Source: Escherichia coli (GTDB taxonomy: Bacteria; Pseudomonadota; Gammaproteobacteria; Enterobacterales; Enterobacteriaceae). From it: DNA of 64,000 nucleotides. Made by a program: the position numbers and the translations under genes. Under the pieces are notes generated by a model that saw only the letters and a program-made list of their open reading frames with translations, ran no database searches and was not told where the DNA came from. The DNA is taken from assembly GCF_003334785.1 (NCBI RefSeq), contig NZ_QOWV01000004.1; one strand, 5' to 3'. Of the stretch, positions 18,113-23,727 are shown in pieces. Each line of letters begins with the position of its first letter. Position 1 is the stretch's first letter.

Positions 18113-18360
18113 AGTAAGTCCTTTCGTAAAACTTTCGTTTCATTTCGTTTTGCCTATTAACGCCTTTCTATTAAGCAAATGCAAGCCCACCTTGCCCATT
18201 GACGCAAGCTACTCTCGTTTCAGTGACTTTCATTATGTTTCTTTTGTGAATCAGATCAGAAAACTATTATCTTTCGTTTTATTTTTATCTCACCATGACG
18301 CAGTATCAACTGAAACAAAACGAAAGATTAATATCGCAGTAATCTGAACTGGAGAGGAAA
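18113..18360. promoter_or_regulatory. agaR/kbaZ divergent promoters with repeated CGAAAG/CTTTCG operator-like elements
   Basis: Multiple copies of aacgaaag and ctttcgtttt in both orientations. Confidence 0.6.
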
Positions 18361-19641
18361 GTGAAACATCTGACAGAAATGGTGAGACAGCACAAAGCGG
18401 GCAAAACAAATGGAATTTATGCCGTTTGTTCCGCACATCCGCTGGTGCTGGAGGCTGCAATCCGCTACGCCAGTGCAAACCAAACGCCGTTACTGATTGA
18501 AGCAACCTCCAATCAGGTAGACCAGTTCGGCGGTTATACCGGAATGACGCCCGCCGATTTTCGCGGCTTTGTTTGTCAGCTCGCCGACTCGTTGAATTTC
18601 CCGCAGGATGCGTTGATTCTGGGTGGTGACCATCTGGGGCCAAACCGCTGGCAAAACCTGCCGGCCGCTCAGGCAATGGCCAATGCCGATGATTTGATTA
18701 AAAGCTACGTTGCGGCAGGATTCAAAAAAATCCACCTTGATTGCAGCATGTCCTGTCAGGACGATCCGATTCCCTTAACTGATGACATCGTGGCTGAACG
18801 CGCCGCCCGTCTGGCGAAAGTGGCGGAAGAAACCTGTCTTGAACACTTTGGCGAAGCCGATCTGGAGTATGTCATTGGTACCGAAGTGCCGGTACCTGGC
18901 GGCGCGCATGAAACCTTAAGCGAGCTGGCGGTCACCACGCCGGATGCCGCCCGCGCCACGCTGGAAGCCCATCGTCACGCCTTTGAAAAGCAAGGTTTGA
19001 ATGCCATCTGGCCACGCATCATTGCCCTGGTGGTTCAACCCGGCGTCGAATTCGATCACACCAACGTTATTGATTATCAGCCCGCCAAAGCGAGCGCCTT
19101 AAGCCAGATGGTCGAAAACTACGAAACGCTGATTTTCGAAGCGCACTCTACCGATTATCAAACGCCGCAATCGCTGCGCCAGCTGGTGATTGACCACTTT
19201 GCCATTCTGAAAGTTGGCCCAGCGCTGACCTTCGCCCTGCGTGAAGCTCTGTTCTCTCTGGCGGCGATTGAAGAAGAACTGGTGCCAGCGAAAGCCTGTT
19301 CTGGTCTGCGTCAGGTGCTGGAAGACGTGATGCTCGACCGCCCGGAATACTGGCAAAGCCACTACCACGGTGACGGCAACGCGCGTCGTCTGGCGCGTGG
19401 TTATAGCTACTCGGATCGCGTGCGCTATTACTGGCCGGACAGCCAGATTGATGACGCTTTCGCTCATCTGGTACGTAATCTGGCGGATTCACCAATTCCG
19501 CTGCCGCTGATCAGCCAGTATCTGCCGCTGCAGTACGTGAAAGTTCGCTCCGGCGAGCTGCAGCCAACGCCACGGGAACTCATTATCAACCATATTCAGG
19601 ACATCCTGGCGCAGTACCACACAGCCTGTGAAGGCCAATAA
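18361..19641 (+). CDS. kbaZ: tagatose-bisphosphate aldolase subunit KbaZ
   Basis: 426-aa ORF with GTG start after aggaaa; GatZ/KbaZ family. Confidence 0.9.
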
Positions 19642-19663
19642 GCAAAACAAAGAGGAACACGCT

Positions 19664-20137
19664 ATGCCAAATATTGTTTTAAGCCGGATTGATGAACGCT
19701 TGATTCACGGTCAGGTCGGCGTTCAATGGGTCGGATTTGCGGGGGCAAATCTGGTGCTGGTAGCCAACGATGAGGTTGCCGAAGATCCGGTACAACAAAA
19801 CCTGATGGAAATGGTACTGGCAGAAGGGAGCGCCGTACGTTTCTGGACGCTGCAAAAAGTTATCGACAACATTCATCGCGCCGCCGATCGACAGAAAATC
19901 CTGCTGGTTTGTAAAACACCCGCCGATTTCCTGACGCTGGTGAAAGGTGGCGTTCCGGTGAATCGCATTAACGTTGGCAATATGCACTACGCCAATGGCA
20001 AACAACAAATCGCCAAAACGGTTTCTGTGGATGCGGGCGATATCGCAGCATTTAACGACCTGAAAACCGCTGGGGTGGAATGCTTCGTTCAGGGCGTCCC
20101 GACAGAGCCTGCTGTGGACCTCTTTAAATTACTTTGA
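19664..20137 (+). CDS. agaV: PTS N-acetylgalactosamine-specific IIB
   Basis: ORF 19628-20137; start refined to MPNIVLSRIDERLIHGQ after aagagga; mannose-family IIB. Confidence 0.9.
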   Translation: MPNIVLSRIDERLIHGQVGVQWVGFAGANLVLVANDEVAEDPVQQNLMEMVLAEGSAVRFWTLQKVIDNIHRAADRQKILLVCKTPADFLTLVKGGVPVNRINVGNMHYANGKQQIAKTVSVDAGDIAAFNDLKTAGVECFVQGVPTEPAVDLFKLL

Positions 20138-20147
20138 GGGATTCATC

Positions 20148-21812: not shown

Positions 21813-22247
21813 ATGTTAAGTATTATTTTGACAGGGCATGGCGGGTTTGCCAGCGGCATGGAAAAAGCAATGAAGCAAATTCTCGGTGAGCAATCGCAGT
21901 TTATCGCCATCGATTTTCCGGAAACCTCAAGCACCGCGCTGCTTACATCGCAGCTTGAAGAGGCCATCGCCCAACTGGATTGTGAAGACGGCATTGTTTT
22001 TCTGACGGATTTGCTGGGCGGCACGCCGTTTCGCGTAGCTTCAACGCTGGCGATGCAAAAACCGGGCTGTGAAGTGATCACCGGCACCAATTTGCAACTG
22101 CTACTGGAGATGGTGCTGGAGCGCGAAGGGTTAAGCGGTGAAGAATTCCGTGTACAGGCGCTGGAGTGTGGACACCGAGGGCTGACCAGTCTGGTGGACG
22201 AGTTAGGCCGCTGCCATGAAGAATGTCCGGTCGAGGAAGGAATATGA
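21813..22247 (+). CDS. agaF: PTS IIA component (mannose family)
   Basis: 144-aa ORF; IIA phosphotransfer domain. Confidence 0.85.
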   Translation: MLSIILTGHGGFASGMEKAMKQILGEQSQFIAIDFPETSSTALLTSQLEEAIAQLDCEDGIVFLTDLLGGTPFRVASTLAMQKPGCEVITGTNLQLLLEMVLEREGLSGEEFRVQALECGHRGLTSLVDELGRCHEECPVEEGI

Positions 22248-23377
22248 CACACGTTCTGCGCGCCAGAAGGCTGCTGACTGAAGAGGGATGGCTCGATGAC
22301 CATCAGTTGCGTATTGCTGACGGTGTCATCGCAGCAATCGAACCGATTCCAGCGGGCGTGACTGAACGCGATGCGGAACTGCTCTGCCCTGCTTACATCG
22401 ACACCCATGTACACGGTGGTGCGGGCGTTGATGTAATGGATGACGCGCCGGATGTACTCGACAAGCTGGCAATGCACAAGGCACGCGAAGGTGTCGGCAG
22501 TTGGTTACCGACCACCGTAACCACGCCGCTTAATACCATTCATGCGGCGCTGAAACGTATTGCTCAACGTTGCCAACGCGGCGGACCTGGTGCGCAAGTG
22601 CTGGGGAGTTATCTCGAAGGACCGTACTTCACGCCGCAGAATAAAGGCGCGCATCCGCCGGAGTTGTTTCGCGAGCTTGAAATTGCCGAGCTGGATCAGT
22701 TGATTGCCGTTTCTCAGCACACCTTACGTGTGGTAGCGCTGGCACCGGAAAAAGAAGGGGCATTGCAGGCCATCCGCCATCTTAAACAGCAAAACGTAAG
22801 GGTGATGCTGGGGCATAGCGCGGCGACCTGGCAACAAACCCGCGCCGCATTTGATGCTGGTGCCGACGGCCTGGTGCATTGCTATAACGGGATGACAGGT
22901 TTACATCACCGCGAACCGGGAATGGTTGGCGCGGGATTAACGGACAAGCGCGCCTGGCTGGAACTGATAGCCGATGGTCATCATGTGCATCCGGCGGCAA
23001 TGTCGCTGTGTTGTTGCTGTGCGAAAGAGAGAATCGTACTGATCACCGACGCGATGCAGGCAGCTGGGATGCCGGATGGTCGCTATACGTTATGTGGTGA
23101 AGAAGTGCAGATGCACGGTGGCGTTGTCCGTACCGCGTCTGGTGGGCTGGCGGGCAGTACGCTGTCTGTTGATGCGGCAGTGCGCAATATGGTCGAGTTG
23201 ACGGGCGTAACGCCTGCGGAAGCCATCCATATGGCGTCGCTGCATCCGGCGCGAATGCTGGGTGTTGATGGTGTTCTGGGATCGCTTAAACCGGGCAAAC
23301 GCGCCAGCGTCGTTGCGCTGGATAGCGGGCTACATGTGCAACAAATCTGGATTCAGGGTCAATTAGCTTCGTTTTGA
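22244..23377 (+). CDS. agaA: N-acetylgalactosamine-6-phosphate deacetylase (full length)
   Basis: ORF 22223-23377; ATG at 22244 after gaggaagg overlaps the agaF stop by 4 nt; NagA-like amidohydrolase. Confidence 0.9.
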   Translation: MTHVLRARRLLTEEGWLDDHQLRIADGVIAAIEPIPAGVTERDAELLCPAYIDTHVHGGAGVDVMDDAPDVLDKLAMHKAREGVGSWLPTTVTTPLNTIHAALKRIAQRCQRGGPGAQVLGSYLEGPYFTPQNKGAHPPELFRELEIAELDQLIAVSQHTLRVVALAPEKEGALQAIRHLKQQNVRVMLGHSAATWQQTRAAFDAGADGLVHCYNGMTGLHHREPGMVGAGLTDKRAWLELIADGHHVHPAAMSLCCCCAKERIVLITDAMQAAGMPDGRYTLCGEEVQMHGGVVRTASGGLAGSTLSVDAAVRNMVELTGVTPAEAIHMASLHPARMLGVDGVLGSLKPGKRASVVALDSGLHVQQIWIQGQLASF

Positions 23378-23449
23378 TAGTTTGCTCCTTTATTGGGCCT
23401 TCACTTCCCCCGTAAGGCCTTTCTTTTTCTTTCGTTTTGATCTGTGCAG

Positions 23450-23540
23450 CGGTGTCGGATGCGACGCTAACGCGTCTTATCCGACCTACAGTTGGTGACC
23501 GCAAGGCCGGATAAAGCGTTTGCGCCGCATCCAGCAATCC
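23450..23540. repeat. REP/BIME element
   Basis: gtcggatgcgacgctaacgcgtcttatccgacctac and ggccggataaagcgtttgcgccgcatccagca match REP consensus. Confidence 0.7.
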
Positions 23541-23727
23541 CTTTTGCTTCCTTTATCTTTTCTTTCAACGATCGCAAATTTCGTTTTATTTCTTTTTTCT
23601 CCATTGAACTTTCAGTATCTTTTCTATAGATTTTAATCAACGAAAGACATCACCAAGTGAAATGAAACGAAAGGCAAGTGAAAGCGACAACGCCCGACGT
23701 CAAGTTCATCAGACTAAGGATTGAGTT
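23541..23727 (+). promoter_or_regulatory. agaS promoter with repeated CGAAAG operator-like elements
   Basis: Several aacgaaag / gaaacgaaagg copies upstream of agaS, the same motif family as the agaR/kbaZ region. Confidence 0.55.

Follow-up and report, generated by a model that had tools for sequence, protein, structure and literature searches.

The window analysed here, a 64-kb stretch of DNA, is a segment of the E. coli chromosome with a complete aga/gam cluster, annotated in the order agaR, kbaZ, agaVWEF, agaA and agaS-kbaY-agaBCDI. Two of its spacers, the divergent one between agaR and kbaZ and the one between agaA and agaS, contain short repeats built around CGAAAG. This raises the question of whether the repeats are binding sites of the regulator encoded next to them, and whether the two halves of the cluster are transcribed and repressed separately. 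The genes that border the two spacers are:

17303..18112, minus strand: agaR, DeoR-family repressor gene (open reading frame, annotation, Pfam HTH_DeoR plus DeoRC, NCBIfam AgaR equivalog)
18361..19641, plus strand: kbaZ (agaZ), first gene of the kbaZ-agaVWEFA operon (open reading frame, annotation)
22223..23377, plus strand: agaA, full length, last gene of the first operon, labelled nagA by PGAP (open reading frame, annotation, NCBIfam)
23728..24882, plus strand: agaS, first gene of the agaS-kbaY-agaBCDI operon (open reading frame, annotation, NCBIfam)

The original gene calls, including that of a DeoR-type agaR, agree with the annotation and with the domains of the agaR product, which has an N-terminal HTH_DeoR domain (PF08220, E = 3e-21) and a C-terminal DeoRC sensor domain (PF00455, E = 5e-55), and which scores 465 bits against the NCBIfam AgaR equivalog, where the cutoff is 260. 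We put a probability of about 0.93 on the repeats being arrays of operators for AgaR, a DeoR-family protein that represses the N-acetylgalactosamine/galactosamine (aga/gam) regulon. Multiple DeoR-type AgaR sites at each promoter, as originally predicted, are supported by published AgaR work, by consensus matches and by a cross-genus footprint. AgaR operators at three promoters of the cluster have already been published, and the regulation is real but ordinary, of the textbook type. Motif enrichment, site positions, conservation, protein family, REP identity and hairpin covariation were computed here.

Both spacers are AT- and T-rich, and the repeats might be chance products of low-complexity intergenic DNA with no specific function. 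The octamer AACGAAAG occurs nine times in the 64-kb window, where 2.68 copies are expected and the maximum among shuffles is five. Six of the nine copies lie in the two aga spacers:

18132-39 (minus), 18271-78 (minus), 18319-26 (plus), 23429-36 (minus), 23639-46 (plus), 23666-73 (plus): copies of AACGAAAG

The degenerate unit TTTCRTTT has 17 matches in 64 kb, nine of them in the agaR-kbaZ and agaA-agaS spacers. When each spacer was shuffled separately with its dinucleotides preserved (2000 runs), the counts of TTTCRTTT or AACGAAAG were almost never attained, which argues against a chance origin. The agaR-kbaZ spacer has five TTTCRTTT (shuffle mean 0.13) and four CGAAAG (mean 0.23), each count reached in 0/2000 runs; the four TTTCRTTT of the agaA-agaS spacer (mean 0.24) were reached in 1/2000. 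The bare hexamer CGAAAG is more weakly enriched in 23541-23727, the agaS sub-region singled out at first (2 against 0.32, reached in 87/2000 shuffles), and this is the count most favourable to chance. Several copies of CGAAAG/TTTCGTTT in both orientations at both promoters, as had been noticed, are thus confirmed by the counts and the local shuffles. A prior-free repeat search over 18100-23740, covering both regions together, also recovers the element, as its top repeat family (D1), and finds inverted pairs (I3, I4, I5, I10, I11 and I18) that connect the two spacers.

The operator unit is not the bare CGAAAG hexamer; it is about 24 bp long, and within it TTTC(R) recurs with a phasing of 5 or 10 bp. 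The hexamer overlooks three elements with CTTTCA or ATTTCG cores (18224-47, 23575-98 and 23609-25), and the AACGAAAG copy at 23429-36 lies outside the agaS sub-region, upstream of a BIME. Two of the CGAAAG copies reported at the outset lack conservation beyond Escherichia: the one at 18121-26, which overlaps the agaR ribosome-binding site, and the one at 23639-46.

The sequence WRMMTTTCRTTTYRTTTYNYTTKK, which we take to be the published 24-mer AgaR operator consensus, matches the window six times with up to 3 mismatches, where chance alone predicts 0.24; two matches are perfect, and every one lies in one or other of the two aga spacers. Since this consensus was first derived from these very E. 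coli sites, the match in E. coli is circular, which the cross-genus result is not. The operator sites on the agaS side lie within 155 bp upstream of agaS, and the rest in the agaR-kbaZ divergent spacer. In 71 orthologous loci from other Enterobacterales there are 282 consensus matches in the 38 kb of the two spacers and eight in the other 1.4 Mb, and five of these eight are actually in agaR-kbaZ spacers that the spacer parser overlooked. In a phylogenetic footprint of 18 genera the conservation of the operator sites is 0.81-0.88, compared with 0.47-0.58 for the remaining spacer sequence. In at least 18 genera the blocks occur at the same positions and in the same orientation, although their flanks diverge. 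Given this and the excess of spacer matches, a chance origin is effectively refuted, and its probability is negligible.

Alternatively, the sites might be operators of another regulator, such as NagC/Mlc or a paralogous DeoR-family repressor, for example GatR. DeoR paralogues control paralogous tagatose-pathway genes, which speaks for such a reading. However, the motif accompanies agaR in every cluster-carrying locus examined, and it is found at the autoregulated agaR promoter region.

The AgaR operators of E. coli K-12 are reportedly the subject of Ray & Larson 2004 (Mol Microbiol 51:813), and a comparative reconstruction is said to be given by Leyn et al. 2012 (J Biol Chem 287:28047). For AgaR binding, for the existence of three promoters and for induction we rely here on the literature. 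Three papers credit Ray & Larson 2004 with showing that AgaR binds the sites in K-12 and that the sites are needed for repression; published work assigns the binding to AgaR and not to another regulator (PMC3668189, PMC4694137, PMC5018945). An O1-type sequence confers AgaR-dependent, AgaR-titratable repression on a synthetic promoter (PMC8667592). Strains with agaR deleted are constitutive (PMC3668189, PMC9628945), and RT-qPCR of agaV and agaB in agaR mutants showed that loss of agaR raises the expression of Aga PTS genes (PMC9628945). Both the titration and the constitutive mutants speak against another regulator, which we regard as very unlikely.

The K-12 locus has the same genes, consensus and promoters (PR, PZ and PS), and AgaR represses both operons there. 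Its spacers differ from those of the window by 1 nt (agaR-kbaZ) and 2 nt (agaS upstream). Since the published footprints lie in these K-12 spacers, the near identity is counted in favour of AgaR operators in the window. The cluster of the present strain is undeleted, with agaW, agaE, agaF and a full-length agaA, whereas K-12 has a 2.3-kb deletion (PMC3668189).

The 248-bp divergent region between agaR and kbaZ contains four operators, O1 to O4, which are arranged around two putative promoters as follows:

18129..18152, plus strand: operator O1 (AAACTTTCGTTTCATTTCGTTTTG), 0 mismatches to the 24-mer; conservation 0.88 against 0.58 for the rest of the spacer, 18 genera
18156..18184, minus strand: putative agaR promoter PR as read from the sequence, -10 GTTAAT (reverse complement of 18156-61), -35 TTGCAT (reverse complement of 18179-84), 17-nt spacer
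18224..18247, plus strand: operator O2 (TGACTTTCATTATGTTTCTTTTGT), 1 mismatch to the consensus; conservation 0.87
18245..18260, no strand assigned: CRP-like site TGTGAATCAGATCAGA, 1 mismatch to TGTGA-N6-TCACA, presumed function; conservation 0.88
18268..18291, plus strand: operator O3 (core CTTTCGTTTTATTTTTA), member of family D1, 4 mismatches to the 24-mer by eye; conservation 0.88
18301..18306, plus strand: putative -10 hexamer CAGTAT of the kbaZ promoter PZ; conservation 0.93
18306..18329, minus strand: operator O4 (AATCTTTCGTTTTGTTTCAGTTGA on the minus strand), 3 mismatches to the consensus; conservation 0.85

Apart from one extra T, positions 18132-18151 are the AgaR site of PkbaZ, CTTTCGTTTCATTTTCGTTT, in Table S3 of PMC8667592. 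O1 lies just downstream of the putative PR, whose hexamer blocks are conserved at 0.96-0.97, and this placement fits agaR autoregulation. The CRP-like site overlaps the 3' end of O2, and its centre would be at about -61.5 from the predicted PZ start, a distance that depends on that prediction. O3 covers the putative -35 region of PZ, O4 covers the probable kbaZ transcription start, and the -10 hexamer is at the centre of the O3/O4 inverted repeat (pair I5, 18269-84 and 18313-28, 94% complementary).

A second array of three to four elements (S1, S2, S3 and S4) surrounds and fills the agaS promoter:

23575..23598, plus strand: operator S1 (CAAATTTCGTTTTATTTCTTTTTT), upstream of the PS -35, 1 mismatch to the consensus; conservation 0.82
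23604..23632, plus strand: putative agaS promoter PS, -35 TTGAAC (23604-09), -10 TAGATT (23627-32)
23609-25: S2, a TTTC-repeat element inside the PS spacer
23639..23646, plus strand: S3, a copy of AACGAAAG at about the predicted PS start, found in Escherichia only; conservation 0.57
23653..23676, minus strand: operator S4 (TGCCTTTCGTTTCATTTCACTTGG on the minus strand), in the agaS leader, 0 mismatches to the consensus; conservation 0.81

The PS blocks are conserved at 0.91, 0.85 and 0.93, and S4 is 100% complementary to O1 over 15 nt (inverted pair I4). A simple sigma-70 promoter scan called neither PZ nor PS, so that the promoter hexamers are inferred from conservation. Within 3 mismatches, the search for a CRP site upstream of agaS gave none at a sensible position.

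It is tempting to ask whether the inverted copies act in RNA, as leader hairpins or attenuators in the 5' UTRs of kbaZ and agaS. The arms of O3/O4 (I5) are 16 nt long, 94% complementary and 28 nt apart, and O4 and S4 are in probable leaders. However, O3, S1 and S2 are upstream of the predicted starts, which would leave the partner arms untranscribed, and the blocks are conserved as sequence identity without compensatory change. A search of the two promoter regions against Rfam gave no family. We consider a function in RNA extremely unlikely.

As DNA operators, the sites suggest a simple mechanism, for which the exact -10 and -35 hexamers, the start sites, the occlusion geometry and the cooperativity are our deductions. 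AgaR is reported to be a tetramer (PMC10991401), and a tetramer on these sites would occlude RNA polymerase and probably CRP too, most likely binding cooperatively between flanking sites. O2 would abut the CRP site, the inverted O3/O4 pair would bracket the -10 and start of the kbaZ promoter, and S1-S4 would bracket and fill that of agaS. Growth on GalNAc or GalN would relieve the repression. As for looping between distant AgaR sites, no demonstration was found in the literature that could be retrieved.

Other arrays of DeoR-family operators include those of GlpR at the glp operons and DeoR at deo. These are similar: each promoter has several sites, which flank or overlap its core and adjoin a CRP site, and the repressor is oligomeric. 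The recognition sequence of AgaR differs, being a T-rich unit, TTTCRTTT, that is phased at 5/10 bp.

Two AgaR-repressed operons, kbaZ-agaVWEFA and agaS-kbaY-agaBCDI, have been described (PMC10101011). In the window, the region between them contains two further elements:

23395..23440, plus strand: terminator-like element, hairpin 23395-23420 followed by the pyrimidine tail CTTTCTTTTTCTTTCGTTTT
23452..23537, no strand assigned: BIME, with REP1 at 23454-23489 (plus) and an inverted REP2 at about 23504-23537

The RNA fold of the agaA hairpin has an energy of -10.2 kcal/mol (z = -1.9). Of 52 distinct orthologous sequences, 49 have both hairpin and tail, and the stems covary when each sequence is folded separately, anchored on the tail. 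When the terminator region was aligned with MAFFT, RNAalifold gave no structure, as variable loops shift the arms out of register. A consensus terminator scan did not call the agaA element, whose tail is broken by C residues.

The BIME is extragenic, located between the agaA stop and agaS. A REP/BIME upstream of agaS had been predicted, and this is confirmed by a perfect match to the REP consensus (0 mismatches at 23457-23489) and by the second, inverted REP. REP1 has an internal palindrome (I2), while the inverted pairs I1 and I3 join it to REP2; I1-I3 are the inverted pairs of the BIME. A strict REP pattern occurs as a single copy in the 64-kb window, and matches to the REP-derived Rfam family naRNA4 are sub-threshold, consistent with REP identity. 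Like other REP/BIME elements of E. coli, this one consists of two imperfect-palindrome REPs, inverted, in a spacer between convergent-free operon ends. There is nothing unusual about it, and the insertion is Escherichia-specific: among the loci compared only those of Escherichia have it, placed after the terminator-like hairpin and before the agaS promoter.

The original prediction held that the BIME implies separate transcription of the two halves. The conclusion is correct, but the inference is unsound. BIMEs also occur inside operons, and this one is restricted to Escherichia; it is therefore a poor argument for separate transcription. The conserved terminator-like hairpin just after agaA is better evidence of a transcript boundary, and together with the conserved PS blocks it supports the conclusion more strongly than the BIME does. 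The cluster comprises two AgaR-controlled operons, kbaZ-agaVWEFA and agaS-kbaY-agaBCDI, with a conserved terminator-like hairpin between them and, in Escherichia only, a BIME too.

The aga cluster matters for the use of GalNAc and GalN from mucin. AgaR control has been lost repeatedly in laboratory evolution, for glucose uptake via the Aga PTS (PMC9628945) and for tagatose use (PMC10101011). The case serves as a positive control, in which a published repressor-operator system and its two-operon structure were recovered by a reader of the sequence alone. What is added is small and leaves the overall picture unchanged: a footprint of the entire control region across genera, the terminator-like element, and the restriction of the BIME to Escherichia.

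Two side observations can be added. The tail at 23416-23439 resembles a weak AgaR site, with 3 mismatches to the consensus, a match better than that of composition shuffles. The tail may also serve as a distal, low-affinity AgaR operator, by which repression at PS would be tied to the point where the first operon ends, a suggestion we consider doubtful; the Escherichia BIME would then have been inserted between it and the remaining agaS array. Separately, and as tentatively, the agaS-kbaY-agaBCDI operon of this strain may be expressed differently owing to a cis-acting mutation of operator or promoter, T to A at 23617. This change, which also sets the strain apart from K-12, is inside the conserved TTTC element of the PS spacer and is absent from all 5,426 complete E. 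coli genomes compared.

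The window is E. coli chromosome, matched along its full length, and at least 80% of 17250-24000 is covered in 4,931 of 5,426 complete E. coli genomes. The RefSeq annotation of the best match gives the gene order garD, prlF-yhaV, agaR (minus strand), kbaZ, agaV, agaW, agaE, agaF, agaA (PGAP name nagA), agaS, kbaY, agaBCDI and yraH, and the aga/gam cluster is complete. In K-12 MG1655, a known 2.3-kb deletion has left agaW and agaA as pseudogene remnants only (L073, 4702-5626), whereas in the window (19628-23377) agaW, agaE and agaF are intact and agaA is full-length. The AgaR protein combines an HTH_DeoR with a DeoRC domain and matches the NCBIfam AgaR equivalog. 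Directly downstream of agaR lies the prlF-yhaV toxin-antitoxin pair (16449-17248), with convergent ends, which is the ordinary E. coli arrangement.

The original prediction placed arrays of CGAAAG-type AgaR operators at both aga promoters, and the presence of motif copies at both is borne out by enrichment, local shuffling and a prior-free repeat search. In the 64 kb there are nine copies of AACGAAAG where 2.68 would be expected, six of them inside the agaR-kbaZ and agaA-agaS spacers; TTTCRTTT occurs 17 times in the window, nine of them inside the two spacers, which together span ~600 bp. In dinucleotide-preserving shuffles of each spacer separately (n = 2000), the TTTCRTTT count was reached by 0/2000 for the agaR-kbaZ spacer and 1/2000 for the agaA-agaS spacer. 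The observed CGAAAG count in 23541-23727 was reached by 87/2000, and this bare hexamer is the weakest descriptor of the element. The prior-free repeat search over 18100-23740 returned the element as its first family (D1), with members at 18132, 18271, 23419 and 23578. Several inverted pairs join the two spacers, and 18132-46 is a perfect 15-nt complement of 23659-73.

The operator unit is not the isolated hexamer first named, but a ~24-bp block in which TTTC(R) units recur with 5- or 10-bp phasing, for example CTTTC-GTTTC-ATTTC-GTTTT. Ray and Larson (2004) reportedly gave the AgaR consensus as WRMMTTTCRTTTYRTTTYNYTTKK. At up to three mismatches, this consensus has six matches in the window against a chance expectation of 0.24, and all six lie in the two spacers.

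AgaR-type blocks of the agaR-kbaZ spacer (O1-O4) and the agaA-agaS spacer
18129-52, plus strand: O1, consensus with 0 mismatches
18224-47, plus strand: O2, 1 mismatch
18268-91: O3, a seventh block, member of family D1
18306-29, minus strand: O4, 3 mismatches
23416-39, plus strand: terminator-tail element, 3 mismatches
23575-98, plus strand: S1, upstream of agaS, 1 mismatch
23653-76, minus strand: S4, upstream of agaS, 0 mismatches

Two copies noted originally are present but carry qualifications: CGAAAG at 18121-26 shares bases with the agaR Shine-Dalgarno sequence (AAGGA in reverse complement) and is unconserved beyond Escherichia, while AACGAAAG at 23639-46, at about +1 of the predicted agaS start, is found in Escherichia only (conservation 0.57). 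The copy at 23429-36 lies inside the terminator tail, upstream of the REP pair (BIME) between agaA and agaS.

Published work already covers this AgaR operator system. PR, PZ and PS are separate promoters (of agaR, kbaZ and agaS), GalNAc induces Pz 5-fold and Ps 20-fold, and agaA and agaS are constitutive in a delta-agaR strain (PMC3668189); PMC4694137 and PMC5018945 agree on this regulation. The AgaR-repressed operons are kbaZ-agaVWEFA and agaS-kbaY-agaBCDI (PMC10101011), and a study that analysed agaV and agaB transcripts of agaR mutants by RT-qPCR reports higher Aga PTS gene expression when agaR is lost (PMC9628945). The AgaR site of PkbaZ, given as CTTTCGTTTCATTTTCGTTT in Table S3 of PMC8667592, equals window 18132-51 except for one extra T, and on a synthetic promoter it conferred AgaR-dependent repression (PMC8667592). 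Because the K-12 spacers differ from the window at only one position in agaR-kbaZ (18265) and two upstream of agaS (23574 and 23617), the published K-12 footprints transfer to the window.

The comparison set consisted of 71 loci from an AgaS scan, one genome per species, from genera including Escherichia, Citrobacter, Enterobacter, Klebsiella, Raoultella, Kluyvera, Lelliottia, Yokenella, Mixta, Yersinia, Buttiauxella, Cedecea and Kosakonia; gene order is mostly conserved. Consensus matches (up to three mismatches) number 282 in the spacers (38 kb) and eight in the other 1.4 Mb, five of which actually lie within agaR-kbaZ spacers missed by locus parsing. In an 18-genus alignment, the E. coli base is retained in 0.81-0.88 of genera at the operator blocks, against 0.47-0.58 in the spacer remainder. 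Multiple AgaR sites at each promoter, as proposed, are supported by consensus matches, cross-genus conservation and published work. The agaR-kbaZ spacer measures 245-251 bp across loci, with one exception (240 bp); this near-constant length despite sequence turnover between the blocks suggests a constraint on operator spacing. Cluster content is variable: an agaA homologue was not found between kbaZ and agaS in loci of Pantoea, Lelliottia, Pluralibacter, Kosakonia, Cedecea and some Enterobacter (L020, L030, L031, L038, L040, L053, L059-L065, L070), which keep AgaR-type sites upstream of agaS.

Promoter positions were predicted from conserved hexamers.

Putative promoter elements
18179-84 and 18156-61, minus strand: PR, TTGCAT and GTTAAT (reverse complements) with a 17-nt spacer, conserved
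18245-60: CRP-like site on the kbaZ side, TGTGAATCAGATCAGA, 1 mismatch, overlapping the end of O2
18301-06: CAGTAT, likely PZ -10, conserved
23627-32: TAGATT, likely PS -10

Given the predicted PR, O1 would sit a short way past the agaR start, as expected of an autoregulatory site. O3 would cover the -35 region of PZ and the inverted O4 the kbaZ start; the two form a 16-nt inverted pair (I5, 94% complementary) centred on the putative -10. On the agaS side, S1 precedes a conserved TTGAAC (23604-09), the putative PS spacer is filled by a TTTC-repeat element (23609-25), and S4, inverted, falls in the predicted leader. This layout fits promoter occlusion by AgaR bound on either side of each core promoter. 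AgaR is reported as a tetramer (PMC10991401), and the sites might interact by cooperativity or looping.

Position 23617, within this TTTC-repeat element, is A in the window and T in K-12, strain AST198 and all other matched genomes, changing a conserved TTTC to TATC. The column is T in 60/61 loci of other genera, and the exact 61-mer around it has no match among 5,426 complete E. coli genomes; several strains share the following 24 kb exactly. The A may be a real cis mutation (operator or promoter) or a sequencing error.

The original prediction also took a REP/BIME upstream of agaS to imply that the two halves of the cluster are transcribed and repressed separately. The BIME (23452-23537) is real and lies where described: a REP at 23457-89 matches the REP consensus perfectly and a second, inverted REP follows at ~23504-37, while in Rfam no above-threshold match was found, only sub-threshold matches to REP-derived naRNA4. 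However, it is limited to Escherichia loci (L001-L005), the BIME-less spacer of other genera being 237-308 bp, so a conserved separation of the operons cannot rest on it. Separate halves are better supported by the conserved PS blocks and a terminator-like hairpin. This begins ~18-23 nt past the agaA stop, with CTTTCTTTTCCTTTC immediately after it; of 52 distinct orthologous sequences, 49 have both hairpin and tail (-9.7 to -19 kcal/mol), with stems that vary yet always pair (GGCCTTACG/CGTAAGGCC, GTCTGTCGC/GCGACAGAC, GGTTTGTGG/CCACAAACC, CTGGCGATA/TATCGCCAG), a pattern of covariation. The window copy with its pyrimidine tail (23395-23440; predicted fold -10.2 kcal/mol) is a terminator-like element. 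Its tail (23416-39) retains the 10-bp TTTC phasing and may be a weak auxiliary AgaR operator or merely a C-interrupted U-tract. Scored with a weight matrix from 85 distinct conserved AgaR sites, 85% of tails exceed the 95th percentile of composition-preserving shuffles of the same tail, but they are far weaker than true sites: their median is 9 bits, and no true site scores below 27 bits. In E. albertii (L066, 7142-10001), the agaA-agaS gap is ~2.8 kb, compared with 350 bp in E. coli, pointing to an insertion between the two operons.
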